A stretch of DNA of 32,000 nt from Candidatus Brocadia sp. (GTDB lineage: Bacteria; Planctomycetota; Brocadiia; Brocadiales; Brocadiaceae), in NCBI GenBank assembly GCA_021650915.1, contig CP091279.1:3330001-3362000 (forward strand), written 5' to 3'. The notes under the pieces were generated by a model. That model worked only from the letters and a program-made list of their open reading frames with translations. It did no database searches and had not been told where the DNA came from. The translations under genes were made by a program, and so were the position numbers. This document shows, in pieces, positions 2,160 to 30,423 of this stretch (positions are counted from its first letter, which is position 1; the number at the start of each line of letters is the position of its first letter).

Positions 2160-2188
2160 AATTATAAACTCTGGTTGTTAAAGAACTG

Positions 2189-2554
2189 CTATTCAAAATA
2201 CGAGGCGCCGCAACGGTCTGATTCCCAGGTCGTAACCTTTTCTACCTTTACGCCCGCGGGAAGCTCCCGCCTTAATTCTTCATATAATATTTTCGACAGA
2301 TTCTCGGTCGTGGGATTTACCTCTGCAAAATCTGCGAGTTCATTTAAATAGATATGGTCAAATCTATTGATAATTTCTCCCACAACCCGTTTTGCGTCCC
2401 GAAAATCCATAACCATACCCAGGGTATCTAACTTTTCCGCTTTTAAAATAACTTGTACCTTCCAATTGTGACCGTGGAGTCTTTCGCATTGGCCTTTATA
2501 TTCACGCAAATTGTGCGCTGCAGAAAAATCCGTTTCAATAATGAGCTCGAACAT
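2189..2554 (-). CDS. queD: 6-carboxy-5,6,7,8-tetrahydropterin synthase / 6-pyruvoyl-tetrahydropterin synthase family
   Basis: 121 aa, typical QueD/PTPS size, with the signature FSAAHNL...CERLHGHNW. Confidence 0.85.
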   Translation of the reverse strand: MFELIIETDFSAAHNLREYKGQCERLHGHNWKVQVILKAEKLDTLGMVMDFRDAKRVVGEIINRFDHIYLNELADFAEVNPTTENLSKILYEELRRELPAGVKVEKVTTWESDRCGASYFE

Positions 2555-2731
2555 ATCTTTTCGTATGGCAAAATGCCACAGCTTTCCCCGTTGTTTCCGA
2601 CCAAAAAAGGATCAATTACATAAAAATCTTATCACCCGTAAAAATGAAAGTCAAGATTATTTTGATTGTTTATATTGACTTAAACGCTCATTATTACAAA
2701 ACATAGGATGGTTTAAAATTCATCAGACGCG

Positions 2732-4654
2732 TTATTTCCTCTTAAATTGTTTTTGCAATTCGCACAGCGAGAAAAACAAGGTGGTGGGTCTTCCGTGCGG
2801 ACAATTATTGGTGTATGCATGAATGTCTTTTTTCATTTTCAAAAGCTCCTCAATCTCCTGCGGTTCTAGCCGCTGCCCTGCCTTAATTGCGCCTTTGCAT
2901 GCCATGACGCTGATTAATTTGCTTACAATCTTGTCTTTGCCTTTGAGTTCCTTCTCATCACTGAATTCAGTCAGCACGCTTTCGATAAATTCCTTGCCGG
3001 GCAAATGTCTTAGCATCTGAGGAAAGGAACGAATTACGATGGTGCGTTGTCCGAACTCCTCAATTTCTACTCCCAGATCCCCAAGGTATTGTTTTATGCT
3101 GGTAACGGAAAAGAAATCCTTCGGACTTAACTCAATCATTTCCGGTATTAACAACCGCTGGCTCGCTGATTGAGCTCCCTGCAGGTTCCTTTCTATTTCA
3201 TGGTATAAAATAATTTCGTGCAATGCGTGCTGATCAATAAGGTTGAATCCGTCGTCGGTTTCTTCGACGATAAAGGCATCGTGAATCTGAAACGACACTT
3301 TTTTTTTACCGATAACCTCCACCGGAGATCTGTTTCCTGCCGGTTCCGGGGTTTTTGACATTTGCGCGTTGACAGATGCTTCGGATTTTTCTGCATGTAA
3401 AACCCCTTCGCCTCTTTCCTCGCAAGGTCTTTCTGGAGGTGAAGAGAGGATATTCCTGTCATCGAAAGGGGTAAACGCGTCCAGGTTTCTTATGCGGTCA
3501 CCGGATGGCGGGATATCCGCATTTCCCTTTGTATCCTGTATCTCATCCGTTTTTCTGTACGAAAACGGTTCCCATAACGATCTTTTCGTGAATCCCGCCT
3601 CATCCGCTTTTCCTGATTCCTTTCCCGGTATCGGGGCAAACGTTGCTATTCCCGAAGGCTTCGGAGCCGCTTTATGCAAACCTTCTTTTAATGCCGCCAT
3701 GACATAGTTATAGATCGAGGAGGTGTTTCGGAAGCGCACCTCCGTCTTTGTCGGATGAACATTCACGTCTACTTCGGACGGGTCTACCTGTAAGAACAAA
3801 AACACGATCGGATACCTCCTGTGCATCAATTTCCCGTGATAGGATTCATTTATGGCGCGGAAGATAGCGCTGTCCTTAATGTAGCGGCCGTTTAAAAAGA
3901 TAAACTGCATTCGGGCGTTCGCCTTGTCAAAAAAGGGGGGTGCAATATATCCGGAAAGGGAAAACAGCGCTTCCCGGAGAAATACCGGGATGAGATGCTT
4001 GCTCATCTCATCACCAAAAAACGTTGCAATTCGTTCGGCTGTTTCCCGAACGGGGGGGAGGTTAAACACCGTCCTGGTATTATGCATAAGGGTAAAGTGA
4101 ATTGCCGGATAGGCGATTGCAAACCGCGTAAGCACTTCCGAGATGTAAGCCATTTCTGTTGGTATTGTCCGTAAAAATTTCTTACGGACCGGCACGTTAA
4201 AAAAGAGATCTTTCACCGTTACCTGGGTTCCTTCCGGCGCCCCGCATTCCTTTATCTGACTCAATACTCCGCCGTCGATGCTTATTTCCGCGCCTTGTAT
4301 CGCCCCTTGCGTCCTGGAGATGATACTGGCGCGCGAAACGGCTCCGATGCTGGGTAATGCCTCACCTCTGAAACCGAGTGTGTGGATTGCAAAGAGATCG
4401 TCTGCGTTGAGGAGTTTACTGGTGGCGTGGCTTTGAAACGCAAGGGAAAGATCTTCGGCGTCCATCCCTATGCCGTCATCCGACACCCGGAGCATTTTTC
4501 GCCCCCCATCCTCCAGATAGGTATCAATCTTTGACGCCATGGCATCAATTGCGTTTTCTATCAGTTCTTTTACGACCGCGGCTGGCCGGTCAATGACCTC
4601 GCCGGCAGCAATCTTATTGATAACCGATGCGGGGAGAACCTTAATATGCGACAT
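2732..4654 (-). CDS. mutL: DNA mismatch repair protein MutL
   Basis: GHKL ATPase motifs (VVKELIENAIDA, DDGIGM, GFRGEAL) and a C-terminal domain with DQHALHEIILYHE and CPHGRP. The ORF track starts at a TTG (4675). I prefer the ATG at 4652-4654 (MSHIKVLP), which has AGGA 9 nt upstream. Confidence 0.95.
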   Translation of the reverse strand: MSHIKVLPASVINKIAAGEVIDRPAAVVKELIENAIDAMASKIDTYLEDGGRKMLRVSDDGIGMDAEDLSLAFQSHATSKLLNADDLFAIHTLGFRGEALPSIGAVSRASIISRTQGAIQGAEISIDGGVLSQIKECGAPEGTQVTVKDLFFNVPVRKKFLRTIPTEMAYISEVLTRFAIAYPAIHFTLMHNTRTVFNLPPVRETAERIATFFGDEMSKHLIPVFLREALFSLSGYIAPPFFDKANARMQFIFLNGRYIKDSAIFRAINESYHGKLMHRRYPIVFLFLQVDPSEVDVNVHPTKTEVRFRNTSSIYNYVMAALKEGLHKAAPKPSGIATFAPIPGKESGKADEAGFTKRSLWEPFSYRKTDEIQDTKGNADIPPSGDRIRNLDAFTPFDDRNILSSPPERPCEERGEGVLHAEKSEASVNAQMSKTPEPAGNRSPVEVIGKKKVSFQIHDAFIVEETDDGFNLIDQHALHEIILYHEIERNLQGAQSASQRLLIPEMIELSPKDFFSVTSIKQYLGDLGVEIEEFGQRTIVIRSFPQMLRHLPGKEFIESVLTEFSDEKELKGKDKIVSKLISVMACKGAIKAGQRLEPQEIEELLKMKKDIHAYTNNCPHGRPTTLFFSLCELQKQFKRK

Positions 4655-5109
4655 AGAATATTTCCTGAAAGGCAATTGTCAGTTCTTGAATCTTGCCTCA
4701 CAAAGGTTGTATTGATGATTACAAAACATGCAGTGCCCATAAAGCATGCCGTTCGCACATCTTGTAGTATACCCTTGTGATGACGCCGCCTAAATAATAT
4801 CACGTAAGGCAGGGAAATCATAATTAAATTATGAGTGGGGTGGCGCAGGGCTACGTCAAATATAAGTGCGAGTAATTGTCCGCAAAAAAGAAAGGAATAA
4901 ACTGGCTTTTTCAAAAGGGTTTTTTTACCATAGAGTCGTGAACCATACGATATAAGACGCTTGGGTGTATAAAGTCATAGGCATAATGGTCACAGCGCTT
5001 GCAGCAACTCAGGGTGCGGGTTGCTGGTTTGATCTCCCGAAAAGGTTTGTTGGTATCTGTGGGGTTGGCAAAAAAACCAGAAGAGGAAAAAGAAAGACAA
5101 GCGGCTCAC

Positions 5110-5349
5110 GGTTAAAATTCATAGCGCGGCACCGCCGCAAACAATTCCCCGTTGTGAAAGCGGGAGATTGCTTCGGACAAGACCCTCGCAATGACACTGG
5201 CTATGTTTTTGATGACATACGGTACGTTGTCATTGCAAGCGAAACGAAGCAATCCTTCTCTCATAAACAAACTGCACCTTCTGATAAAGGGTAAATAGGG
5301 TCGCGAAAAAACTTACAAAAAAAAGAAGTTTTTACACAGTAATATTATA
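5110..5349. repeat. ~240-bp repeat copy A, in inverted orientation relative to copy B at 11636-11864; carries an internal imperfect palindrome
   Basis: The reverse complement of 5110-5349 aligns by eye along its whole length with 11636-11864. Shared blocks include tattactgt.taaaaacttcttttttt.gtaagttttt, gattgcttcg.ttcgct.gcaatgacaac, gtgtcattgcgagggtctt.tccgaagcaatctccc and gcgg..gtgccg.gctatg. Internal arms: gattgcttcgg...ctcgcaatgaca versus tgtcattgc.ag...cgaagcaatc. Confidence 0.8.
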
Positions 5350-5447
5350 AAAGAGGGAGGTGCATGCTTCAAGTGATGCGTAAAATCTGATTATAGTATA
5401 TTTCTTAAAGGTTTTGTTTTTGTTTATTGACGAGAGGAGTGTTAGCT

Positions 5448-6410
5448 ATGAGCAAGAAAAGAGTATCATTTTTTAAAAACCCTGCCTTGGTTTCAGGAAT
5501 GATCGGCCTCGCCGGCGTCGTGCTTTTTTTGGCCGGCTGTGCCGCCCCAAATGCGCAAAAGAGAATCGCAGCCTTTTCTACGGCATTATCTATTGCCACG
5601 ACAAATACAACGGAAGCCTTTGAAACCGTGGATCAAAAATTTTACCGCACCAAGGTGGCATTATTGGTTAATAACTATGACGAAAAAGGCTTTAACCCAA
5701 ACACCGAAATGCATTTTCTCACCGGGCAGGATCTGGCGGTGCGTGAACAATTATTTAAGGGATTGCAGCGCTACGCTCAAAAATTGGCAGATATCATGAG
5801 CGATGCACAGTTGAAAGAATTTGACGCCGAAACAAAGGCGTTCGGGAAATCTCTGCAGAAATTGAGTGAGAATGACGCCTTTAAAAATATAAACAGCGGG
5901 GCTTCTAAGGCAAATATCGATGCCTTTGTCACGGCGGTTGATGTCGTTGGACGTTTTTTTATTGACTACAAACGGGAGAGGGGTGTCAGAGAAATAGTTG
6001 CCGACATGAAACAACCCATCGAAAATATCTGCAACACGCTCATCTCAGATATCGGACAACCCATGGATAAAACCGGAGCAGGTGGCTTTGGATTAAGAAA
6101 TCAATCCTGGATCCAGTATGACGTCATGTTAAAGGAACACATCAGCTTTATCGACCGCAATAAGGACAAGTTTGATCCTGTGACAAAAGCGGAAGCAATC
6201 GCAAAACTTCCGGCTATCGTTGAAGAACAGAGCAAGGCGGATCTGACCCTGAAGGCAACGCAGGATACCTTAAAAAAGCTCAGGATGACACATGACGAAC
6301 TGGTAAAGGCATTTGATAAAACATGTCCAACATTGGAGAATCTTATTGCCGAACTTATTGACGAGGGAAAAAGGGTAGGTAAGTTTTATAAGAGTCTTGC
6401 AAAAGAATAA
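5448..6410 (+). CDS. Predicted lipoprotein, all-helical, function unknown
   Basis: ATG at 5448 with AGAGGAG upstream (the track start at 5427 is a TTG). Signal peptide plus lipobox: MSKKRVSFFKNPALVSGMIGLAGVVLFLAGC. The remainder is charged and helical with no motif I recognise. Confidence 0.7.
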   Translation: MSKKRVSFFKNPALVSGMIGLAGVVLFLAGCAAPNAQKRIAAFSTALSIATTNTTEAFETVDQKFYRTKVALLVNNYDEKGFNPNTEMHFLTGQDLAVREQLFKGLQRYAQKLADIMSDAQLKEFDAETKAFGKSLQKLSENDAFKNINSGASKANIDAFVTAVDVVGRFFIDYKRERGVREIVADMKQPIENICNTLISDIGQPMDKTGAGGFGLRNQSWIQYDVMLKEHISFIDRNKDKFDPVTKAEAIAKLPAIVEEQSKADLTLKATQDTLKKLRMTHDELVKAFDKTCPTLENLIAELIDEGKRVGKFYKSLAKE

Positions 6411-6582
6411 CGGAAGATGACAGTACGATACAGCTACAACCACATCCCTCTGGCAATGAGATGACCCTTTCCTGAATACCCGCCTGTTTGTGGGGAGCTA
6501 AAGGGGTTGTGAAAAAACGTGTTAAAGCAGCGAGATCGTGCGTGCTAATACGATAATTTTTATACCATAAGGAGGATAAGCC

Positions 6583-6939
6583 ATGGCAAAGGAAGGAAAG
6601 AATGAATTGGCCCAGCAGGAAATCCGTGATATTTTCGGTGAGCTTTATAAGGCTCTTGACGATGCGTACTGGAGCGCAACGACGATTATCGATAAGGACC
6701 GCATCAGAGGTGCACAAGAAGGTATATTTGATATCCTTACTGAGTTGAACAGGGCACACATTCAATCAAACACAGAAAAGCTTAAAGAATTAGCTTCAAA
6801 AGTTGGTGATGTAAATAAGCGGCTTGATGCGTTAAAAAAGGATATCGATAAGGTTGTTCAGCGAATAGAAGTCGCCACGCGTGTGGCGAAGGCAATTGAT
6901 AAGGTGCTTACCCAGGCGGCCAAGTATTTTAAGGTTTAG
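6583..6939 (+). CDS. Small helical/coiled-coil protein, function unknown
   Basis: 118 aa with a strong RBS (AAGGAGGATAAGCC-ATG). Heptad-like charged sequence (KLKELASKVGDVNKRLDALKKDIDKVVQRIE). Confidence 0.55.
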   Translation: MAKEGKNELAQQEIRDIFGELYKALDDAYWSATTIIDKDRIRGAQEGIFDILTELNRAHIQSNTEKLKELASKVGDVNKRLDALKKDIDKVVQRIEVATRVAKAIDKVLTQAAKYFKV

Positions 6940-6973
6940 GTAGTGCACCAAGATTAAATTCCAACCATTCTTG

Positions 6974-7000
6974 CGGGAGCAGGCTTGCCGCCTGCTCCCG
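6974..7000 (+). terminator. Perfect 10-bp stem hairpin downstream of the 118-aa gene (possible intrinsic terminator with a weak T tract)
   Basis: cgggagcagg (6974-6983), loop cttgccg, cctgctcccg (6991-7000), followed by gttcttcc. Confidence 0.4.
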
Positions 7001-7234
7001 GTTCTTCCCGTGTACTTTATACCATCCAATTTTAGTGTTATTAAGGGTCTCATAATTGTATTGATTCGTCGTATGCTTTCCTTCTCCAATATTGAAGCGC
7101 TAAACGGACAGCTTAATGTGTGTTCTATTATGAGACGATTAATAAGTACAAAAATTAAAAAATGAACACCCTTTTAAACCAGAATATTTCAGAGATTATT
7201 GCTGAGACAGCAAAAAGCCGATGAGGAGGGAAAA

Positions 7235-8392
7235 ATGGCTGTTGAATTTGAGGTTTTGAATGCTGAAGGAAAGAGACTCAAAGACGATATAACGGTACAA
7301 CGCAGAAAATTAGAAACTGTATCGCTGAATTATGACGAGTTTAAAAAGAATACGGAAACCACGCTTAAAGACCTAGACGATAAAATAGATGCCCTTCTAA
7401 AAGGTCCTTTATTGTCTAAGGATACGTGGGACACGCATCCGCAGCAGGACGATGTAATCAGAAAAGTTCGTAATGACCTGCACGACAATTTAGAAACAAG
7501 AAAAGTTAGCATTGAACGGGTAGTGAATCTGTTGGTTCCTGACGTAAAGATACCCAAAAGGTTGACTATAATTGGCATTACTATTTTACTACTCATGATT
7601 GGCGGTTATGTCGCACTTCATAAATACATTGACACCCCGACGTACAAAAAAGAAAATGGGGAAAAATTATTTGCGGCAATCGGGAAACTCAAGGCGCATA
7701 TTTTAAATCCAGAGGTGAAGTTAAATGATATGCCTGATTTACCGGATTTTAATCCTTTGACGGCAAAGAAAGGGCCGCGTTCAGATGATCCTGAAAAGAA
7801 AGAAAAAGGCAATGACGCTACAGGCCCTGCTACTGCGCCAAGTCAAGATGCTTGGGCATTAGTATTTGCAGAGAGAATTAGCAGCTTCAACGGTTTTGTA
7901 TCAGTCGTTAAAGCCGGCACCACTACGGGAACTGGTTCTGTTATTGTAAAAAGCCAGGTTGATAAAATAAAGGAAGAGCTTGAAAAAATAGAGAAGGATG
8001 CCCTGATATTTTCAAAGAATGATGGATTTTTTTGGATAACTGGTTATTGGAGATGGCTGGAGATTGTATTTTGGGGGGAATTTGGGGTGATTGTTGGAAT
8101 CCTTGCATGGATTTGTACACAGGCGGAGGTGGGGGGGTATACAAAGGGAAAGTATGAGAAAGAGTTACCTTGGTATATAGCGGAAATGGTTATGGGTCCG
8201 GTTATTGTTGTGGCAGTCTTTTTCCTGTTGAAACAGTTTGTTGGGACATTTATCGCCGGAGTTGCAGAAGAAGACGTTCGAAGTTCAATATACCTAACGC
8301 TGGGTATCTCTTTTGCGCTTGGGCTTTTTATAAGAAGGACACTCGGTGTTTTTAATTTTATCAAGGATAAACTACCACTTCCAAAGGAGTAA
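7235..8392 (+). CDS. Membrane protein: N-terminal cytoplasmic coiled coil, one TM, low-complexity linker, then three C-terminal TM helices; function unknown
   Basis: ATG at 7235 preceded by GAGGAGGG (the track start at 7199 is a TTG). Hydrophobic segments: LTIIGITILLLMIGGYVAL, WLEIVFWGEFGVIVGILAWIC, IAEMVMGPVIVVAVFFLL, IYLTLGISFALGLFI. The coiled-coil N-terminus reads LNYDEFKKNTETTLKDLDDKIDALL. Confidence 0.7.
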   Translation: MAVEFEVLNAEGKRLKDDITVQRRKLETVSLNYDEFKKNTETTLKDLDDKIDALLKGPLLSKDTWDTHPQQDDVIRKVRNDLHDNLETRKVSIERVVNLLVPDVKIPKRLTIIGITILLLMIGGYVALHKYIDTPTYKKENGEKLFAAIGKLKAHILNPEVKLNDMPDLPDFNPLTAKKGPRSDDPEKKEKGNDATGPATAPSQDAWALVFAERISSFNGFVSVVKAGTTTGTGSVIVKSQVDKIKEELEKIEKDALIFSKNDGFFWITGYWRWLEIVFWGEFGVIVGILAWICTQAEVGGYTKGKYEKELPWYIAEMVMGPVIVVAVFFLLKQFVGTFIAGVAEEDVRSSIYLTLGISFALGLFIRRTLGVFNFIKDKLPLPKE

Positions 8393-8658
8393 TAGTTAAG
8401 GATCTCTCAGGGTCTGACCTTGGCAGGTTGTCCGAGGACGTGGCATCTTGGTTTTCTTTCATAAAACCATAAAAAACGGGCCAGAAACAGTTACGAAGCA
8501 GTAGTTCAATGATATAATAAAACTCGATGAAAGCACCACGGCAAAAGTACGCCAAGCAGTTAAAACTGTAGTTGCCTTTTAGTGTGTTCATCGCTTTTTA
8601 CAAGGAGACGACCCTGGAAGAGAATAAGCAAAAGAACGATATAGCGGCTGCGTCCGTA

Positions 8659-9060
8659 ATGCCTCAAGCACAGCAGCAACAGAATGTGTTAGCGCCACCC
8701 CAAAGCCAGTCAGGCTTTCATGAGCTGATGAAATTGGTGATCACAGACACGAATCTCCAGCCCGTGGAGAAGAAGAAACTTCTCAATGAATTGCGCAAGA
8801 GTAGCGGCGCCGATCGCTGGACGTATAGATCAGCAATCTGGATTCTGGGGACCGTCGGTCTACTTACCGTCGGTGCGATCTGGTATCTCAGTATCAGTAA
8901 TGGTTTCAAAGCGGAAAACATTCCCCAAGGGCTCGTAGCTATCGGGTCGAGTGCCGTGGGCGGGCTAGCCGGTCTACTAACCCGACTTTCGCAATTCGCG
9001 TCCAAAAAAGTTTATTTTTGGGCAAGAGTCGCCAGGAAACCCGTGATATTCAAGGGGTGA
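8659..9060 (+). CDS. Small 2-TM membrane protein, function unknown (start uncertain; frame is open from 8572)
   Basis: Q-rich N-terminus, then two hydrophobic helices (AIWILGTVGLLTVGAIWYL, LVAIGSSAVGGLAGLL). The stop lies 10 nt before the left boundary of the IS-like element. The first ATG is at 8659. An AAGGAG at ~8602 is followed only by non-ATG candidate starts. Confidence 0.5.
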   Translation: MPQAQQQQNVLAPPQSQSGFHELMKLVITDTNLQPVEKKKLLNELRKSSGADRWTYRSAIWILGTVGLLTVGAIWYLSISNGFKAENIPQGLVAIGSSAVGGLAGLLTRLSQFASKKVYFWARVARKPVIFKG

Positions 9061-21513: not shown

Positions 21514-21813
21514 ATGGCTACCAAAACGTTAAGCATACGCATAGATGACGACGATTATAAATTTCTTTCCGTTCTGGCGAAAGAAGAAAAGGAAGATGTT
21601 TCAAAGACAGTAAGAGAACTGGTTGATCTCGGCAGGGTAATGCTTGCCATAGAGAAATATAAAAAATCAGAAGCATCCATTGAGAAGGCTGCAAAGATAG
21701 CCGGGGTTTCTATCTCAAAAATGATGGAAATATTTAAGGAATATAGCGTTGAGGCAAACCTGGAATATGAAGACTATCTGAAGGGGCTAAAGAGCATAAG
21801 AAAAGTCTGGTAG
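21514..21813 (+). CDS. UPF0175 (COG2886)-type putative antitoxin
   Basis: 99 aa. N-terminal RHH-like segment (LSIRIDDDDYKFLSVLAKEE) and a C-terminal HTH-like segment (SIEKAAKIAGVSISKMMEIFKEY), which is the usual UPF0175 layout. Lies 4 nt after the PIN-like gene. Confidence 0.65.
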   Translation: MATKTLSIRIDDDDYKFLSVLAKEEKEDVSKTVRELVDLGRVMLAIEKYKKSEASIEKAAKIAGVSISKMMEIFKEYSVEANLEYEDYLKGLKSIRKVW

Positions 21814-21826
21814 GAATAAAAAGTGA

Positions 21827-21934
21827 TTATATTTTTTGGACAGTGATTTAGCTGACTATGCCAAGAACAAACTACGCAATTCGTTCCGCGGGTATTCAAT
21901 TTTACGTTCAAAAGAGGTCATCTATGCAGCCTGA
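21827..21934 (+). pseudogene. C-terminal remnant (~35 codons) of an MNT-type nucleotidyltransferase antitoxin
   Basis: The open frame reads LYFLDSDLADYAKNKLRNSFRGYSILRSKEVIYAA*. This resembles MNT C-termini (..N.YFR.SIL...EVIY). Its stop overlaps the HepT-like ATG (ATGCAGCCTGA), as in intact MNT/HepT pairs. No N-terminal GS..DxD region is present. Confidence 0.4.
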
Positions 21935-22366
21935 AGACCGCGACGCTGCGTATCGTTGGGGCATGCTGGATTATGCCCATACAATTCTTAAATTCACGTC
22001 AAGATTGAATTATACCTCTTATTTAATGGACAGGAAACTACAGCTCGCTGTTGAGAGGCGCATTGAAATAATCGGAGAATCAGCAAAAATGTCTCGGAGG
22101 CATTTAAGAAAGAACATCCCGAAATTCCGTGGCATTTGATAATTGCCCAGAGGAATGTCATTGTTCATGAGTACGGAGAAATAAAGCAAGACCGCATCTG
22201 GGCGCTTGCTGAAAACAGGATACCTGAACTGGTTGAGTTAATCAAACCGCTATTGCCGTCCTTGGGGTATCTGCCTACTGAAAAAGAGTTGAAAGATGAG
22301 TTAGAGCGTGAAAAAAGAATGCTTGAAACGGAGTTCAAATTGTTAAAATCAAAAGGCAAGAAATAA
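21924..22366 (+). pseudogene. HepT/DUF86 (HEPN) toxin, frameshifted in an A-run
   Basis: Piece 1 (frame 0) reads MQPEDRDAAYRWGMLDYA...VERRIEIIGESAK. Piece 2 (frame 2) reads NVSEAFKKEHPEIPWHLIIAQRNVIVHEYGEIKQDRIW and contains the Rx4HxY HEPN motif. The frames join if the A5 run at 22085-22089 were A6. Confidence 0.7.
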
Positions 22367-22627: not shown

Positions 22628-25600
22628 ATGAGTTATTCAACACTCTCCTATGATGCATTTTTAAGGATTACAAGTCAAAATAAGAATCTTGAGTATGTGT
22701 TTCTTTTAGGAGCAGGGGCATCAATTAGTTCTGGAGTCCCATCGGCAGAAGATTGTATTTGGGAATGGAAAAAGGAGATATTTTTAACTAACAACCTTCA
22801 CGACTCAGACCTTTGTGATGATTTGAAATTACAAAGTACGAGAATAAAAATCCAAAAATGGATTGATGCTGATGGCTCTTGTCCTCCATTGGATGATCCT
22901 CAAGAATATTCATTCTTTGCTGAAAGGGCTTATCCAACAGATGAATCAAGAAGAAAATACTTTGAAAATCTCTTTCAGGGAAAAAGTCCTTCGTTTGGTT
23001 ACCATATTCTATGTCTTCTTGCCAAAGAGGGAATGGCAAAGATTGTATTCACAACTAATTTTGACGGACTTTTGACAAGGGCAGCTTACCTAAATAATCT
23101 TACCCCCATTGAAGTCACTATTGATACGGAAGACTATATCCACCGGCAACTAGAAAAAAATCGGATCATGTGCGTTGCATTACATGGCGACTATAAGTAC
23201 GAGAAACTAAAGAACACCGGCAAAGAACTTGATAATCAATCGGTTGAATTTGAAAAAGCCCTGCAGTTTCATTTATACAATAAAAATTTGATTGTTCTCG
23301 GGTATAGTGGAAGAGACAAGTTGCTTATGTCTGCCTTAGAAAAGGCTTATAGTACCAAAGGTTCCGGCGCTCTTTTCTGGTGTAGCTATAAAGATAAAAT
23401 TTCCCAGGATGTTGAAATCCTTCTTAATCGGGCAGTAGAAAATGATCGTAAAGCCTATCTTGTACTCACAAATGGCTTTGATGAAACTCTTCATGATATA
23501 GCCAAATATTGTTTTTCAGATAATAACGAATTGCAGAAAAAACTGAGTGAAATTGTTCAAATAAAGGATATAAATAGCCCCAATGAGGAATTACATATTG
23601 AACCATTATCCACTGTATCAAGCATACTCGTTGATGGATCTCATATTAATATCGAAAAAGAAATTGTTTCCATCGAATCATCTACCACACAACCGTTTGG
23701 TTTTCACGAAAGCGCCTTTTTATCCGAACTGACGATTTCTTGCATTATTGGTGCATGGAACGAATCTGTTGAATCAGATAAGGATGTTATAACCAATTTA
23801 TCAAAGAGGCGTTATATTGACTGGATAGTGGATCTGCGACAAGTTCTACACCTTAGAGAAAGTCCATTAAAAATGAGCAACGGGATTTGGTATGTTATTG
23901 ATCGAAAAGCGCTGTGGAATGCTTTGGGTTCTAGAATATTCGATGACCACTTAGATCAATTTAAAAGATGTGTGACTACAGTGCTTACAGAGCTAGACCC
24001 ACAATTCGAGTTGCCTGTTGATAAACGCTATGCTGTGCGTATTTATGGCAAGGTGCTGAAACATTCATCTGACTTGCGTAAGGGACTGGCGGAAACCCTG
24101 GCATTGCTTGGAAACTACGGAAATGTTTTAAAGAATTGTGCTCAGGATAAGCCGGAGTCTACGGCTATTCTGGCTATACGTGAGATATTTGAAGGGGCAG
24201 ACTGGCGACTCTGGGGCAGCCTTAATGATTTATTACCAACGCTGGCCGAAGCTGCTCCGGGTGAGTTCCTGGATTTGGTAGAAAAAGCGCTTCAACAATC
24301 GCCGTGTCCCTTTGACGAACTTTTTGTGCAGGAAGGAAGTAGTGTTACCGGCAGAAATCACATGATAGGTTTACTCCGGGCGTTGGAATGTTTGGCCTGG
24401 CATGAGGAACATTTAGTGCATGTCGCCATGATTTTAGCCGAGTTAGCATTCCATGATCCGGGTGGAAATTTGGCAAACAGACCGGCCAACTCTCTGACAA
24501 CAATCTTATTGCCATGGCTTCCACAAACGCTGGCGCCCATTCATAAGCGTATTACATCCATCAAGGCAATCAAAACAGAGTTCCCCGACGTTGCCTGGAA
24601 TGTATTGCTCAGTTTATTGCCGAATCAACATCATGTATCAACTGGCACATATAAACCCCGCTGGAGCAACATCCTTCCAGATGACTGGAAGCCCAAGGTT
24701 ACAAATAAGGTATATTGGGAGCAGGTTACTGGTTATGCAGAGATTGCCGTTGAAATAGCATGCAAGGATTTGGATAAACTCAACGAGTTAATTGGCAACC
24801 TTGACAATTTACCTAAGCCATCATTTGACACCGTTTTGGAATATCTGTCCTCCGCTGCAATTACCCAACTTCCAGAAATAGAACGGTTGCCGATTTGGTC
24901 AAGCCTTACAAAGTTTACAAGGAAACACCGCCGTTTCTCCAGTGCAAAGTGGACGCTGGATGATGAGAGTGTTTCCAGAATTGAGGCTACTGCAAACAGA
25001 CTTACACCTAACAGCCCCGAAATCCTGTACCGCAACCTTTTTAGCAGTAGGGATTTTGACCTCTATGAAGAAAACGATAACTGGAAAGAACAACGCAAGA
25101 AGCTCGATGAACGACGCCAGAAAGCTATTCAGGAAATTATAAACGCAAGTGGCATACAGGGAGTTATGGAGTTTGTTGATGCAATTGAATCACCGAGCAT
25201 GGTTGGATGGACTATGGGTACGATTACTCCTAACACAATAGATCCTGTTTTACTGCCGGAATATTTGGATGTGAAAAATATAAAATATCAGCAATTTGCG
25301 GGTGGCTTTGTTTGGAGCCGTTACCAGCAACAAGGGTGGCAATGGGTTGATTGCTTGGACAGAACCAACTGGTCTCTGATGCAGATATGTCAATTTCTGA
25401 TGCATTTGCCTTTCGAGGTTAATACATGGTGTCGTGCAAATAATTGGTTAGGAGATTCTGAAAGCATGTACTGGCAAAAGGTGACGGTAAACCCGCACCA
25501 ATCTGACAGTGATCTCTTGCTTGCAATTGATAAACTATTATCGGTTGCACGTCCGCAGGCAGCAATTGACTGCCTTTATTATAGGTTCTATAAAAAATTA

Positions 25601-26386
25601 CCTTTGGATAGAAAGCGAACAGTAAAAGCTCTCATGGATGCAGTTTCCGTAAAAGAGCTTGTAAATATGGAGACCTATCATATTACAGAACTCATTAAGG
25701 CGTTACAGAATGATTCTGAAACTGAAGAAGATGATTTATCCCGCATTGAGTGGGCTTATTTGCCACTACTGGACCGACATAGTGAAGCCGAGCCCAAATT
25801 GTTAGAGAAACGACTGGCTACCCAGCCTGGGTTTTTCTGTGAAGTCATTCGGCTTGTTTATCGTTCCAAAAATGAACCAAAGACGGATGGAGAACCTGAC
25901 AAACAAAAAGAAACCATTGCCGTTAACGCCTGGAGGCTTTTGCGTGAATGGAAGCGGTCTCCTGGTTTACAAGGGGATGGAACTTTTTCTACACAAGATT
26001 TTGAAACATGGCTTAAAAGCGTTAAAAAATACTGTGCGGAATCTGGCCACCTTGAAGTCGCCATGCTCACAGTTGGAAAGGTATTATTGTACTGTCCTGC
26101 TGATCCTCAAGGGCTCTGGATCGTGCAGGCGGTCGCCAGAGCATTGAATGCCAGAGATGCCGAAGAGATACGAAGAGGATTTGTAAACGAGGTATTTAAT
26201 TCAAGGGGCGTGCATGATGTAGATCCAACCGGGAAACCAGAAAAAGAATTGGCTATACATTGGCGGGAAAAGGCTGACGCCGTTGAGAATGCTGGTTTTG
26301 CAAGATTCGCAGCCACATTACGAAAACGAGCCGAGTCTTACGACCGTGAAGCTGAACAGATAATAAAAGAGCATAGGCAGGGATAA
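22628..26386 (+). CDS. 1252-aa SIR2-domain protein: N-terminal SIR2_2-type NADase-like domain plus a ~950-aa helical C-terminal region of unknown function; candidate DSR-like defence protein
   Basis: Ordered SIR2 motifs: LLGAGASISSGVP (GAGAS at nt 22709-22723), VFTTNFDGLL (N144, nt 23057-23059), ALHGDY (H186, nt 23183-23185), VLGYSGRD. No P-loop anywhere in the protein. The C-terminus is Leu/Trp-rich with no motif I can name. Confidence 0.85.
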   Translation: MSYSTLSYDAFLRITSQNKNLEYVFLLGAGASISSGVPSAEDCIWEWKKEIFLTNNLHDSDLCDDLKLQSTRIKIQKWIDADGSCPPLDDPQEYSFFAERAYPTDESRRKYFENLFQGKSPSFGYHILCLLAKEGMAKIVFTTNFDGLLTRAAYLNNLTPIEVTIDTEDYIHRQLEKNRIMCVALHGDYKYEKLKNTGKELDNQSVEFEKALQFHLYNKNLIVLGYSGRDKLLMSALEKAYSTKGSGALFWCSYKDKISQDVEILLNRAVENDRKAYLVLTNGFDETLHDIAKYCFSDNNELQKKLSEIVQIKDINSPNEELHIEPLSTVSSILVDGSHINIEKEIVSIESSTTQPFGFHESAFLSELTISCIIGAWNESVESDKDVITNLSKRRYIDWIVDLRQVLHLRESPLKMSNGIWYVIDRKALWNALGSRIFDDHLDQFKRCVTTVLTELDPQFELPVDKRYAVRIYGKVLKHSSDLRKGLAETLALLGNYGNVLKNCAQDKPESTAILAIREIFEGADWRLWGSLNDLLPTLAEAAPGEFLDLVEKALQQSPCPFDELFVQEGSSVTGRNHMIGLLRALECLAWHEEHLVHVAMILAELAFHDPGGNLANRPANSLTTILLPWLPQTLAPIHKRITSIKAIKTEFPDVAWNVLLSLLPNQHHVSTGTYKPRWSNILPDDWKPKVTNKVYWEQVTGYAEIAVEIACKDLDKLNELIGNLDNLPKPSFDTVLEYLSSAAITQLPEIERLPIWSSLTKFTRKHRRFSSAKWTLDDESVSRIEATANRLTPNSPEILYRNLFSSRDFDLYEENDNWKEQRKKLDERRQKAIQEIINASGIQGVMEFVDAIESPSMVGWTMGTITPNTIDPVLLPEYLDVKNIKYQQFAGGFVWSRYQQQGWQWVDCLDRTNWSLMQICQFLMHLPFEVNTWCRANNWLGDSESMYWQKVTVNPHQSDSDLLLAIDKLLSVARPQAAIDCLYYRFYKKLPLDRKRTVKALMDAVSVKELVNMETYHITELIKALQNDSETEEDDLSRIEWAYLPLLDRHSEAEPKLLEKRLATQPGFFCEVIRLVYRSKNEPKTDGEPDKQKETIAVNAWRLLREWKRSPGLQGDGTFSTQDFETWLKSVKKYCAESGHLEVAMLTVGKVLLYCPADPQGLWIVQAVARALNARDAEEIRRGFVNEVFNSRGVHDVDPTGKPEKELAIHWREKADAVENAGFARFAATLRKRAESYDREAEQIIKEHRQG

Positions 26387-26632: not shown

Positions 26633-26857
26633 ATGAAAGCAATAAAGAAGCTCGCAAAGGTTGAAAAGGACAAAAGTATAACAATCAAGCTTCTCCCTTT
26701 TAAACCCGGAAGCAAGGTTGAGGTGATCGTATTTCCAGCAGGCAAGGAGGAAGATGTTTTCAGTTTCATGGATAAAGTTGTGAAGGAAAAAAAGATTGCG
26801 CCCATGAGCCTGAAACAGATTGAAAAGATAGTACATGAATCACGGGCAGTAAAATGA
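26633..26857 (+). CDS. Putative antitoxin (AbrB/SpoVT-like) of the downstream PIN gene
   Basis: 74 aa with a strong RBS (AAGGAGG). Overlaps the PIN gene start by 4 nt (ATGA). SITIKLLPFKPGSKVEVIVFP resembles a swapped-hairpin barrel strand pair. Confidence 0.45.
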   Translation: MKAIKKLAKVEKDKSITIKLLPFKPGSKVEVIVFPAGKEEDVFSFMDKVVKEKKIAPMSLKQIEKIVHESRAVK

Positions 26858-27257
26858 AGAAACAGATAGTGCTTGATACCAATGTCCTGATATCGGGCTA
26901 TCTGTGGAAAGGCAAGCCCCGTCAGGCAATACAGGTGATTAAGTCTGGAGATTTCGTCTGTTGTATTGTACGGATTCTCTGGATGAGCTTGTCAGGATAT
27001 TGTCGTCAAAGTTCACTCTTGCAGCATCAGAAATATACAAAATCATATTGGATATCAAGAGCATTGGCAGGAGAATTACCATATCTTCAAAAGAGCATCC
27101 AATTAGTGATGACCCCTCAGATAATCTGTTTGTAAATCTGGCTATGGATGGGAATGCTAAAATTATTGTAAGTGGTGATTCCCACCTTTTGAGACTTAAA
27201 AAATATAAAGGCATAGATATTATAACAGTTGCTGAATTTGTAAAACGATTCTTGTAA
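26854..27257 (+). pseudogene. PIN-family TA toxin (TIGR00305-like), frameshifted
   Basis: Piece 1 reads MKKQIVLDTNVLISGYLWKGKPRQAIQVIKSGDFV. Piece 2, in another frame, reads (L)YCTDSLDELVRILSSKF...ISDDPSDNLFVNLAMDGNAKIIVSGDSHLL. Together they reconstitute the family pattern (DTNV...DpdDn...vTGDkhLL). A 1-nt indel near 26958-26961 separates them. Confidence 0.7.
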
Positions 27258-27662: not shown

Positions 27663-28457
27663 ATGGCTAACTATCATATTTCTAAACATTCAAAATTCAT
27701 CCAACAGATGCGCAAAAAGCGCAATCTGACCCAGGAGTATCTGGCGTCAAAGATTGGTGTTTCCCGGCCTACGTATATCCAAATAGAGCAGGGCGAGAAG
27801 GATTTGACAATTTCCTCAGCGAAAACACTTGCAGATATTTTTGGCATTTCTTTTGATGATTTTATAGGCGGCAAAGAGCCAAGGCATGAGGTTATTTTAG
27901 AAAAAGTGAGTGCAGGTAAAAAAACAGATTCCAGTCTTCAAATCCGCGTAACGCGAAAGAATCTTGATAAATTCAAGCAGGTGTTGCTTTATATTCTGGA
28001 AAAAGTCGGCGGCAAGCCAAATGTCGGTGAAACCGTACTCCATAAACTCCTTTATTTTATTGATTTTGATTATTATGAAAAGTTTGAAGAAAACTTAATG
28101 GGGGCGACTTACATTAAAAATCATCACGGACCGACATCGGTTGAGCTGGGAACAATTTTAAAAGATATGCAGAAAAACGGCGAGATTGAAGCGGTAAAAA
28201 GCAAATATTTTAACCATTTGCAAAAAAAATATCTGCCTGTCAAGCGAGCCGATCTTAATGCCCTCTCGGCACGGGAAATTGGTCATATTGAAGAAGTCCT
28301 GGCTCGTCTTTCTGATAAAAATGCTAAAGAAATAGAAAATTACTCTCACGAAGATATTCCGTGGAAAGCGGCGAAAGAAGGTCAGCCCATTTCTTATGAA
28401 AGTGTGTTCTATCGGGACGAACGTTATTCAGTAAGAAACTATGACGATGACCTTTAA
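27663..28457 (+). CDS. XRE-family HTH fused to a Panacea (DUF4065/SocA-like) antitoxin domain
   Basis: The N-terminus RKKRNLTQEYLASKIGVSRPTYIQIEQGEKDLT is an XRE HTH. The C-terminal region KLLYFIDFDYYEKFEENLMGATYIKNHHGP is the DUF4065 core. RBS GGGAG. Confidence 0.75.
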   Translation: MANYHISKHSKFIQQMRKKRNLTQEYLASKIGVSRPTYIQIEQGEKDLTISSAKTLADIFGISFDDFIGGKEPRHEVILEKVSAGKKTDSSLQIRVTRKNLDKFKQVLLYILEKVGGKPNVGETVLHKLLYFIDFDYYEKFEENLMGATYIKNHHGPTSVELGTILKDMQKNGEIEAVKSKYFNHLQKKYLPVKRADLNALSAREIGHIEEVLARLSDKNAKEIENYSHEDIPWKAAKEGQPISYESVFYRDERYSVRNYDDDL

Positions 28458-28779
28458 TGAATTGCCGGAATTTGCCAAAGAATTTAAGCAGAAGATCAAG
28501 AAGTACAAATCATTGTCGGATGACCTGGAAGAGTTTAAACGCGTACTCACCGTTGAGCCTTTGGGTAACAGTAAACATTTTAATATCATAACAAAGAATG
28601 ATCGCTGCACTGTCGTAAAGGCGCGTTTATTTTGCCGCTATCTAAAGGGTTCTTCTCTGCGGATTATTTACGCTTTCCATTGCAATGATTTGAGGGTTGA
28701 CTTTATCGAGATATATTTTAAGGGCGATAAGGAAAATGAAAACTGCGAAAGGATTAAAGCATATCTAAACAGTTTCTAA
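28441..28779 (+). CDS. Putative toxin partner of the Panacea antitoxin, RelE/ParE-superfamily-like
   Basis: 112 aa. Overlaps the upstream gene by 17 nt. SSLRIIYAFHCNDLRVDFIEIYFKGDKENEN resembles the C-terminal strands of RelE/HigB-type toxins (..YRiiY.......i.lieiy.Ksdkenl). Confidence 0.55.
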   Translation: MTMTFNELPEFAKEFKQKIKKYKSLSDDLEEFKRVLTVEPLGNSKHFNIITKNDRCTVVKARLFCRYLKGSSLRIIYAFHCNDLRVDFIEIYFKGDKENENCERIKAYLNSF

Positions 28780-29009: not shown

Positions 29010-29294
29010 ATGACTTACCAAGAAATGGAGAATAAAGTAGTTTCCATATTAACAAAGTACAATGTCAAGACAATAGGCATCTTCGGCTCTTATGCCAGAG
29101 GTGTTCAAAGACCGGACAGCGATCTGGATGTCCTGGTGAATTTCAAGGAGAGAAAGAGCCTGCTTACCTTGGTGAGAATAGAACGGGAGCTGTCTGAGAC
29201 CATTGGAGTGAAGGTGGATCTTCTCACAGAACAGTCCATAAGCCCATATCTGATCGACAGGATAAAATCGGAAATGAAGGTGATATATCAATGA
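29010..29294 (+). CDS. MNT-type minimal nucleotidyltransferase antitoxin (MntA-like)
   Basis: 94 aa with GIFGSYARG...DSDLDVLV (GSx10DxD). Has an ATGA overlap with the downstream HepT gene. Confidence 0.85.
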   Translation: MTYQEMENKVVSILTKYNVKTIGIFGSYARGVQRPDSDLDVLVNFKERKSLLTLVRIERELSETIGVKVDLLTEQSISPYLIDRIKSEMKVIYQ

Positions 29295-29620
29295 TCAAGG
29301 ATGGCACCGTATTTTTACGGCACATACTGGATGCAATCAATAAGATTCAGAAATATACAAAAGATATGGATTATGAGGGTTTCAGGGCATCCAGCCTGGT
29401 GCAGGATGGTGTAATACGACAATTGGAGATTATTGGAGAGGCTACAAAGAACCTGTCACAGGAAATTCGGGAAAAACATCCTGATATCCCGTGGAAAGAC
29501 ATGGTAGGGATGAGAGACAAACTGATTCACCAATATTTCGGTGTTGATATAGCCGGGGTATGGGACACATTGGAAGAGGATATCCCGACTCTGAAAAGTA
29601 ATCTGATTAAGCTTTTGTGA
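29291..29620 (+). CDS. HepT/DUF86 HEPN toxin
   Basis: 109 aa with EIIGEATKNL and the Rx4HxY motif (MRDKLIHQYFGVD). Confidence 0.85.
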   Translation: MIKDGTVFLRHILDAINKIQKYTKDMDYEGFRASSLVQDGVIRQLEIIGEATKNLSQEIREKHPDIPWKDMVGMRDKLIHQYFGVDIAGVWDTLEEDIPTLKSNLIKLL

Positions 29621-29902: not shown

Positions 29903-30214
29903 ATGATAATCGTTAAATCAAAAAACAATGTTCCCTTACGACTAACAAAGGAACGATGGAACCATATTATTCTTAGACATCCCGAAATGGATGTGCAAAA
30001 GGAACACGTTTTGGAAACCGTGACTATCCCCGATCTGATTCAGGAGGGGGATTTTGGGGAGTTTCTTGCCGTTAAGTTTTATGAGAAAACACCGCTGACA
30101 TCCAAGTATTTAGTTGTAATATATAAAGAGGTCATAGATACCGACGGTTTTATAATAACAGCGTATTACGCTACGAAACCTTCTGAAAGGAGGAAAATAT
30201 TATGGAAGCGATAA
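29903..30214 (+). CDS. Uncharacterised 103-aa protein, putative toxin-like partner of a DUF2283 protein
   Basis: LRLTKERWNHIILRHPEM...GFIITAYYA. Overlaps the DUF2283-like gene by 13 nt. I recall this family only as an unnamed neighbour of DUF2283 genes. Confidence 0.5.
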   Translation: MIIVKSKNNVPLRLTKERWNHIILRHPEMDVQKEHVLETVTIPDLIQEGDFGEFLAVKFYEKTPLTSKYLVVIYKEVIDTDGFIITAYYATKPSERRKILWKR

Positions 30215-30423
30215 AGATACTTGAGAAGAAAGAGAACCTTAACTGGGACTATGATGAAGAGGCAGATGTCCTTTATATAAGTGTAGGAGAGCCGCAAAAG
30301 GCGCTCGGCGTGGACATCGGGGAAGGCGCTGTTGTGAGATATATTGAGGCTACCGGCGAGGTTGTGGGGCTTACTCTGATAGGAGTTAAAGAAAGGGTGC
30401 TTAGGAGTCTAAAATCTAATTGA
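30202..30423 (+). CDS. DUF2283-family small protein
   Basis: 73 aa. DYDEEADVLYISVGE...GEVVGLTLIG is the DUF2283 pattern. Confidence 0.6.
   Translation: MEAIKILEKKENLNWDYDEEADVLYISVGEPQKALGVDIGEGAVVRYIEATGEVVGLTLIGVKERVLRSLKSN

Follow-up and report, generated by a model that had tools for sequence, protein, structure and literature searches.

Avs8, formerly PD-lambda-4, is a STAND NTPase in which an Mrr nuclease and a P-loop domain are combined with a repeat sensor, and Avs8A directly binds HK97-fold major capsid proteins (bioRxiv 10.1101/2025.07.02.662641). The sensor of Avs7 is common to Dsr1, a SIR2 protein without an NTPase, and the capsid protein triggers both; this Avs7/Dsr1 sensor family comprises 9,097 proteins and has many effectors fused to it, some of them HEPN-like, the Avs7 and Avs8 sensors are treated as different architectures, and degenerate Walker motifs occur in KpAvs8 (bioRxiv 10.64898/2026.01.04.697583). 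In SPARSA, a short prokaryotic Argonaute (pAgo) system, residues N142 and H186 of the Geobacter Sir2 protein (GsSir2) were proven catalytic by experiment in a 2024 study, and Sir2 tetramerisation repositions H186 for catalysis (PMC11452484). Here we compare with these systems a gene of Candidatus Brocadia sp. located at positions 22628..26386 (+) of a 32,000-nucleotide stretch of contig CP091279.1 (referred to below, at its full length, as the window). Its 1252-aa product joins an N-terminal SIR2 domain to a very large helical C-terminal region, and it had been singled out from the sequence as a candidate DSR-like, NAD+-depleting defence system (the original prediction).

As judged from sequence, the protein combines a SIR2 domain of the SPARSA clade with an Avs8-related sensor that has no nucleotide-binding oligomerisation domain (NOD). 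We read it as a single-polypeptide defence protein, with a sensor and an NAD+-depleting effector in one chain that would probably act by abortive infection, and we place the probability of this reading at about 60%. In the comparisons made here, it did not qualify as a member of DSR2, SPARSA, Avs8, Avs5, ThsA or SIR2-HerA.

The open reading frame (ORF) is intact, with an ATG start and 1252 codons followed by a stop. A 100% identical protein (P0001) is recorded as 'MAG: SIR2 family protein [Candidatus Brocadia sp.]' (MAG, metagenome-assembled genome), and homologues at 42-69% identity cover the whole length (homology search). Its features, in window coordinates, are as follows.

22628..26386, + strand: complete coding sequence, with SIR2 effector, linker, winged helix and putative alpha-solenoid sensor (ORF list, translation)
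22637..23692, + strand: SIR2 (SIR2_2 or 'SIRim') domain, a putative NADase, of the short-pAgo-associated clade, aa 4-355 (PADLOC, Pfam and PDB matches)
22709..22723, + strand: GAGAS NAD-binding glycine loop, aa 28-32 (motif position; G28, G30, A31 and S32 invariant in 20 homologues)
23051..23065, + strand: TTNFD, aa 142-146, with the catalytic-type Asn144 (codon 23057-23059; invariant in 20 homologues, aligned with GsSir2 N142)
23180..23194, + strand: LHGDY, aa 185-189, with the catalytic-type His186 (codon 23183-23185; invariant in 20 homologues, aligned with GsSir2 H186)
23300..23317, + strand: GYSGRD, aa 225-230 (invariant in 20 homologues; GsSir2 has the identical six residues at identical numbering)
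23555..23701, + strand: poorly conserved, low-confidence linker between the effector and the shared module, about aa 310-358 (predicted local distance difference test [pLDDT], consensus, alignment ends)
23702..23935, + strand: start of the module, with a junction helix (L..IIGAWNE..E.D) and a winged-helix-like unit, aa ~359-436 (AlphaFold2 model)
23936..26383, + strand: alpha-solenoid (HEAT/TPR-like), putative sensor, aa 437-1252 (AlphaFold2 model, family conservation)
24161..25849, + strand: part of the sensor colinear with residues 625-1219 of the Avs8/PD-lambda-4_A sensor, aa 512-1074 (hhalign, A3 against A7)

The four SIR2 motifs were found in the places first assigned to them (GAGAS at aa 28, TTNFD at 142 with N144, LHGDY at 185 with H186, and GYSGRD at 225), and G28, G30, A31, S32, T142-D146, L185-D188 and G225-D230 were invariant across 20 full-length homologues, 37-68% identical to the protein. 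Membership of the SIR2 family, likewise predicted, was borne out by Pfam SIR2_2 (PF13289), which matched aa 139-259 above its cutoff (E=1.2e-12; 48.5 bits versus 24.5), and the Asn/His pair was retained on alignment, N144 and H186 being aligned with the catalytic N142 and H186 of GsSir2. Among the PADLOC models, PDLC02384, the SIR2 part of SIR2-APAZ-pAgo fusions, covered aa 4-355 with an E value of 2.7e-128, and the Aga_SIR2 models reached 3.8e-83. In searches of the PDB, Geobacter SPARSA Sir2 (8jkz/8in8) scored far over all others (E=3.5e-29 with the single sequence and 3.6e-48 with a 20-sequence profile), followed by ThsA (4e-4), FAM118B and KomC. The domain groups with the immune SIR2 clades and not with the deacetylases, which scored only E>0.3 in the PDB profile search. 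By sequence, it belongs to the short-pAgo (SPARSA) clade and is not DSR-like: no PADLOC DSR1 or DSR2 model matched the protein at E<=1, and no DSR or DSR2 chain was retrieved in the PDB profile search at E<=10.

The likeness to SPARSA lies in the SIR2 clade, in the alignment of the catalytic Asn and His and of GYSGRD, and in activation through Sir2 oligomerisation, which is likely a shared principle. It does not extend further: the SIR2 alignments stop at aa ~292-355, corresponding to position 352 of 1030 in the PADLOC profile and to about residue 305 of 584 in the PDB chain, and, unlike SPARSA, the protein has no APAZ domain, no pAgo (MID-PIWI) gene nearby and no machinery for guide or target nucleic acids. 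A divergent APAZ-PIWI region was considered as an identity for the C terminus and rejected, since the model of this region is all-alpha and both the PADLOC and the PDB alignments end after the SIR2 domain. ThsA, excluded already in the original prediction, is represented by weak SIR2-level matches only (E~4e-4), with no SLOG or Macro domain and no TIR neighbour.

The C-terminal ~890 aa proved to be Leu/Trp-rich (L, 11.6%; W, 3.2%) and helical and to match nothing in Pfam, PADLOC or NCBIfam, as predicted; the whole protein was also without an NCBIfam match. Modelled by AlphaFold2 with 33 homologues, aa 330-1252 had a mean pLDDT of 88 and showed a disordered linker, a winged-helix-like unit at aa ~365-436 (element order H-E-H-H-E-E-H) and a long all-alpha solenoid. 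The linker was unconserved in the consensus, and pLDDT was below 50 at model residues 1-27 (aa 330-356). There is no room for a nucleotide-binding domain (NBD) between aa 300 and 359, and neither an NBD nor a helical domain is present. In agreement with the predicted lack of a P-loop, a motif scan found no Walker A ([GA]xxxxGK[ST]) anywhere in the 1252 aa.

To relate this region to Avs8, profile-profile comparisons were performed with hhalign. The Avs8 alignment (A7) comprised 21 homologues collected from a bona fide Avs8 of a Lelliottia plasmid (PADLOC E=2.3e-183), with an invariant Walker A (GLSGVGKTR). The SIR2 forms (A3) matched it over 533 columns with a probability of 96% and an E value of 3.8e-9. 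A second subfamily of the same module, the P74 type (A4; see below), matched it over 696 columns (96%, E=4.8e-9), and the C-terminal module by itself (A2) over 543 columns (94.6%, E=7e-8). Reversed-profile controls gave probabilities of 0.1-0.2% and E values of 0.27-0.65. On this profile evidence, the sensor of the window protein is a remote homologue of the Avs8/PD-lambda-4 sensor, neither wholly new nor of the DSR type.

An AlphaFold2 model of the P74-type N terminus (pLDDT 88; predicted TM score [pTM] 0.86) contained a nuclease-like domain, a Rossmann-like NBD, a helical domain and a winged helix; the unit equivalent to the winged helix of the window protein thus comes after a STAND-like NBD and a helical domain. 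The best PDB matches of this model were Avs3 (8dgc) and Avs4 (8dgf), then AAA+ ATPases, and the alignment of the P74 type with Avs8 took in the helical domain, the winged helix and the sensor. PADLOC PD-Lambda-4_A weakly matched 7 of 33 family members, all of the P74 type (best E=3.8e-5). The P74 type resembles Avs8A in its entire order (nuclease-like domain, STAND-like NBD, helical domain, winged helix and sensor) and in length (1269 aa versus a 1283-position PADLOC profile). It differs in the P-loop position, where the sequence is QLKLxTHYPDQVxDFV; Walker A is missing from this position in every family member but is kept in Avs8 (GxxGxGKT in 120 of 120 homologues). For its part, the window protein shares with Avs8 a C-terminal repeat sensor, homologous at the profile level, and a variable N-terminal effector, and differs from it in the lack of an NBD and a helical domain and in its effector, SIR2 rather than the Mrr nuclease or DUF676 lipase of Avs8. 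The simplest reading of these forms is a series leading from an Avs8-like STAND protein to the P74 type with a dead NOD, and then to proteins such as that of the window, in which only a linker separates the effector from the winged helix and sensor.

The C-terminal module (~860 aa) recurs with differing N termini (homology search), about a dozen alternatives of kinds typical of conflict systems. Its profile retrieved 6768 clusters at 50% identity with E<=1e-3, 3854 of them with E<=1e-30, and a scan of one genome per species found it in at least 585 species from most bacterial phyla, candidate phyla radiation (CPR) bacteria and methanogen-related archaea. It is an unnamed family, and nothing in the Pfam, NCBIfam or PADLOC libraries searched matches it. 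Besides SIR2_2 in the window protein, the N termini identified by Pfam were SLFN AlbA_2 (Schlafen; E=3e-16), GT4-conflict (3e-81), PNP_UDP_1 (2e-18), FRG (2.5e-21), DUF4062 (1.5e-19), Metallophos (a metallophosphoesterase; 1.3e-9), DUF4145 (weak; 0.0015) and, in a distant branch only, HTH_3 (7.6e-9 and 5.5e-4); HetE-N (1.5e-40) was found in a separate adjacent gene upstream. At least two further N-terminal modules are unnamed, and the two commonest N termini are among them: the 'GGGG' domain (~320 aa, with the motifs TGGGGxxFE, TDDLIVF and GQ[VI]KHS), the commonest effector, and the P74-type domain (~410 aa). Approximate shares among the best-scoring representatives were 45% for 'GGGG', 25% for the P74 type, 15% for split two-gene forms and 3% for SIR2. 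PDB sequence-profile searches with the 'GGGG' alignment (A6) or the P74-type alignment (A4) gave nothing meaningful; from its motifs (TGGGGxxFE ... TDDLIVF ... GQ[VI]KHS), one idea is that the 'GGGG' domain could be a Cap4/DUF4297-like PD-(D/E)xK nuclease.

Exchange of effectors was frequent. On a neighbour-joining tree of 258 sensors, a crude one, at least 55 changes of N-terminal type and at least 14 of SIR2 state were counted. The nearest sensor relative of the window protein (P0007, 80% identity) pairs with a different, separately encoded effector; its upstream 234-aa gene matched the HEPN-like type in the junction helix only. A constant sensor with interchangeable effector domains is a typical feature of immune sensor-effector families. 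Where the module is 'stand-alone' (860 aa), its effector has a gene of its own upstream, which overlaps the sensor gene and closes with the module's junction helix; this helix is the sole part common to the module and the separately encoded effector genes.

In two-gene versions, the break between effector and sensor genes has a fixed position. Two such loci are L001 (5046-6011 / 6001-8592) and L097 (323-1027 / 1017-3626). In both, the effector gene ends in the junction helix (LAxAxLLGxW.E..E.D) and overlaps the sensor gene by ~11 nt, which suggests that the two proteins reassemble through this helix. L013 (5567-5887 / 5893-8661) differs in having no overlap, with the junction region encoded in its 922-aa sensor gene. 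In the distant branch (25-29% identity; plasmids of Rhizobium, Shewanella and others), the P74-type domains are preceded at the N terminus by an additional XRE-type helix-turn-helix (HTH), and the PADLOC 'Control_protein' model scored E=6e-13 on this HTH; examples are L011 5636-9700 and L012 152-4264. The annotations of these proteins as 'HTH transcriptional regulator' or 'HigA antitoxin' are probably misleading. On an Adhaeribacter plasmid (L014 3851-8712), a divergent 1262-aa member lies directly after a YhcG/DUF1016 PDDEXK nuclease gene and an HTH + ImmA/IrrE pair, an arrangement that may represent a multi-gene variant.

A wider proposal, to which we would give somewhat less than an even chance, is that the winged-helix and solenoid module marks out, in bacteria and archaea, a very large family of pattern-recognition immune receptors that work without an NTPase. 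Their ancestor would have been an Avs8-like STAND protein, whose NOD first degenerated (P74 type) and was then lost altogether (SIR2, 'GGGG', Schlafen, PNP and others), with free exchange of effectors, also with short-pAgo systems, and sometimes with splitting at the fixed junction helix.

Under the defence reading, the winged helix and alpha-solenoid of the window protein would act as a pattern-recognition sensor, a long-range homologue of that of Avs8/PD-lambda-4. The solenoid would bind a conserved phage protein, the major capsid protein being the obvious first guess, and binding would drive or rearrange oligomers. The SPARSA-type SIR2 domains would then be packed together as in SPARSA, the loop of His186 would be aligned with Asn144 and NAD+ hydrolysis would be switched on, so that NAD+ depletion would either stop phage replication or kill the cell. 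As there is no NOD, activation would need no NTP; a precedent for an NTPase-less arrangement has been reported in Dsr1, which consists of a SIR2 domain and an Avs7-type sensor. The ligand specificity of Avs8 is not transferable to the window protein, given the remote identity and the failure of the PD-Lambda-4 models to match it (see below).

Several observations weigh against the defence reading or limit it. The hhalign alignments with the Avs8 sensor show only 15-17% identity, a remote similarity, and the window protein itself gave no match to the PADLOC PD-Lambda-4 models at E<=1. Foldseek comparison of the sensor with the PDB gave generic solenoids only (CAND1, karyopherins and HEAT/ARM proteins), with TM scores of ~0.2, a result uninformative as to family. 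No experiment on any family member was found, and the host is an anammox MAG with no tractable phage system. Finally, the window copy is not beside a restriction-modification (R-M) system, and its toxin-antitoxin neighbours mark a mobile island and not defence specifically. The absence of homologues of the module from 50,697 phage records counts neither for nor against defence.

The claim of a DSR-like system stood in part. An N-terminal SIR2 domain with intact catalytic residues, a giant helical sensor in the same polypeptide and a defence-like context were all present, whereas no homology to DSR1 or DSR2 was detected by PADLOC or PDB profile search; 'DSR-like' is an analogy of architecture rather than a demonstrated relationship. 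With DSR2 (SIR2, MID and a HEAT-like C-terminal domain that senses the phage tail tube), the protein shares the single polypeptide with an N-terminal SIR2 and a C-terminal alpha-solenoid sensor and, by our reading, would share abortive NAD+ depletion, but there was no sequence or profile match, and DSR2 was outside the top 50 Foldseek matches of the sensor model. It resembles Avs5 (SIR2-STAND) in placing a SIR2 effector on an Avs-type sensor, but Avs5 has a functional STAND NTPase and the window protein has none. SIR2-HerA differs in its HerA gene, which is missing among the neighbours.

Dsr1 follows the same plan as the window protein: its N-terminal SIR2 NADase leads straight into a large helical sensor of the Avs type, with no STAND NTPase, in ~1200 aa (bioRxiv 10.64898/2026.01.04.697583). 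The window protein could be a divergent member of the described Dsr1 family, with an Avs7-type capsid sensor and only the host being new. The architecture agrees (N-terminal SIR2, no NOD, a solenoid of ~900 aa), and the large Avs7/Dsr1 sensor family, with its many effectors, resembles the window family in modularity. We nevertheless consider this unlikely. The PADLOC DSR1 and DSR2 models matched neither the window protein nor any of the 33 family members (E<=0.1-1), whereas PD-Lambda-4_A matched 7, which sets the family apart from the Dsr1/Avs7 sensor at the level of library models. Moreover, the SIR2 domain is of the SPARSA clade, and the profile-profile comparison tied the sensor significantly to Avs8, not demonstrably to Avs7, two architectures that the preprint separates.

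The affinity of the SIR2 domain to the nucleic-acid-guided SPARSA systems raises another possibility, namely, that the winged helix and solenoid sense not a protein but a nucleic acid (foreign DNA or RNA, or a modified base), echoing the pAgo systems, the apparent source of the SIR2 domain; the module does begin with a winged-helix-like unit, and the distant branch carries its additional XRE-type HTH. This is also improbable. The winged-helix domain (WHD) of STAND proteins is a structural part of the NOD and not a DNA reader, and the P74-type model shows that same order of NBD, helical domain and WHD; in addition, the sensor aligns with that of Avs8, a direct protein binder, and there is no APAZ, MID or PIWI domain.

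The genomic settings of the family are of the defence type. The three SIR2-fused homologues available on long contigs (P0036, P0010 and P0022; 46, 54 and 50% identity to the window protein) all lie between hsdS and hsdR of type I R-M operons; they are co-oriented, and stop and start codons overlap. RhuM, AbiEii or Abi_C genes adjoin these R-M-embedded homologues, one of which is on a Tn7-like element. Among 80 independent family genome loci, hsd genes were present in the flanks of 14, 9 of them with hsdM/S upstream and hsdR downstream on the same strand. The module was also found on 24 plasmids, with one copy beside Abi and SieB genes on a conjugative Shewanella plasmid.

PrrC, in the prr locus, is a precedent for guarding type I restriction-modification, and the repeated, co-oriented insertion between hsdS and hsdR could be taken to mean that the sensor monitors a type I R-M complex or its inhibition in a PrrC-like manner, the SIR2 domain firing when a phage anti-restriction factor disables R-M. 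The occupation of the same slots by RhuM, AbiEii and Abi_C, known cargo of R-M loci, is in line with this. We regard such a guard function as unlikely. The remaining 66 of the 80 loci have no hsd genes in their flanks (for about half of these, the sequence on one or both sides is shorter than 7 kb), and there are none by the window copy, the plasmid copies or the E. coli prophage copy, so that the protein must be capable of working alone; besides, defence genes in general use type I R-M operons as landing pads.

The least probable alternative is that the gene has no part in defence and either encodes a sirtuin-like enzyme for regulation or housekeeping, with a scaffold domain, or is an inert leftover of an island in decay: broken genes do occur on the island (a split HepT and a PIN fragment), and a promoter/terminator scan around the gene did no better than shuffles, but the ORF is intact and full-length versus its homologues, the catalytic residues are invariant, the SIR2 domain goes with the immune clades and not with the deacetylases, and the family swaps its effectors and has a patchy, horizontally spread distribution across bacteria and archaea that takes in plasmids, a prophage and R-M operons.

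If the protein is indeed an NTPase-free receptor of a defence system, the family of at least 585 species genomes and 6768 clusters would be an immune family that is absent from the Pfam, NCBIfam and PADLOC libraries searched and has no name there. The nucleotide switch would appear dispensable, and the natural series from an intact STAND protein (Avs8) through a degenerate NOD (P74 type) to none (SIR2 and others) could show how effectors are activated without the ATP-driven oligomerisation thought central to NLR-like immunity. The observation made for Avs7 and Dsr1 would be extended to a second sensor lineage, with an activation mechanism still to be discovered and a new ligand specificity, and our results would suggest that SIR2 domains have been exchanged between Argonaute-based and protein-sensing systems. 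The question would be directly testable with the E. coli member WP_044867624.1 and with members on Shewanella and Buttiauxella plasmids.

Of 5,426 complete E. coli genomes, 8 carried a 'GGGG' member under the annotation 'hypothetical protein'; megablast with the window gene found nothing in 5,426 E. coli genomes. In the E. coli A28 chromosome (L096 12001-15543), WP_044867624.1 has an IS3 element on one side and, on the other, the tail-fibre genes at the end of a lambdoid prophage. Literature searches for 'HetE-N', 'DUF4020' and WP_044867624 gave nothing useful. In two independent R-M-embedded loci, a 39-aa ORF directly follows the SIR2-sensor gene (L008 11753-11872, MNRIAEPAIEKFAIEL..., and L098 12744-12863, MTKITESVIEDLAVEL...). 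By eye, both resemble the HsdR N terminus; if they are so derived, further cargo (RhuM, DUF6933, AbiEii) would have been inserted just inside the 5' end of hsdR.

In the window, the gene has as neighbours a UPF0175 gene, a split HepT, an MNT and HepT pair, an HTH-Panacea protein and a PIN fragment, the whole being bounded by uvrA and an alcohol dehydrogenase gene. The region is AT-rich, with GC contents of 0.37-0.46 at 21-30 kb versus 0.49-0.54 at 12-20 kb (except for a bin of 0.455 at 17-18 kb). Thus, of the AT-rich island of toxin-antitoxin and R-M debris described in the original prediction, the toxin-antitoxin genes and the AT richness were found, but not the R-M debris: tblastn with type I HsdM/S/R exemplars gave nothing in the window, and no neighbour had an R-M Pfam domain. 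The stated lack of a HerA, pAgo/APAZ or TIR partner was correct, with no HerA, pAgo or TIR genes among the window neighbours and alignments that end before APAZ. No tRNA genes were found in the window.

Directly upstream of the SIR2 gene, a UPF0175-family ORF (21514-21813) is followed by a HepT-like RNase in two overlapping ORFs, 21858-22139 covering profile positions 1-47 and 22136-22366 covering positions 83-118, which looks like a frameshifted toxin pseudogene. The second HepT copy of the island (109 aa) forms, with an MNT nucleotidyltransferase (94 aa), an intact pair of overlapping genes at 29010-29620. At 27663-28779, a 264-aa protein with HTH_3 and SocA/Panacea domains precedes an overlapping 112-aa ORF with no Pfam match, and these may be a Panacea-type antitoxin with an unclassified toxin. 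A 93-aa PIN_3 fragment (26854-27135, profile positions 2-41 only) and the region 29903-30423, where a DUF2283 ORF (30202-30423) comes after an unassigned 103-aa ORF, are probably further small toxin-antitoxin-like modules or remnants. A second AT-richer patch (5000-8400; GC 0.39-0.44), between mutL and ABC-transporter genes, includes two ORFs with no Pfam match, 5427-6410 (327 aa) and 7199-8392 (397 aa), and may be another small island. At 870-2159 (-), a fused OMPdecase/HUMPS-like and RraA-like aldolase of 429 aa belongs to ordinary metabolism and is unrelated to the SIR2 gene.

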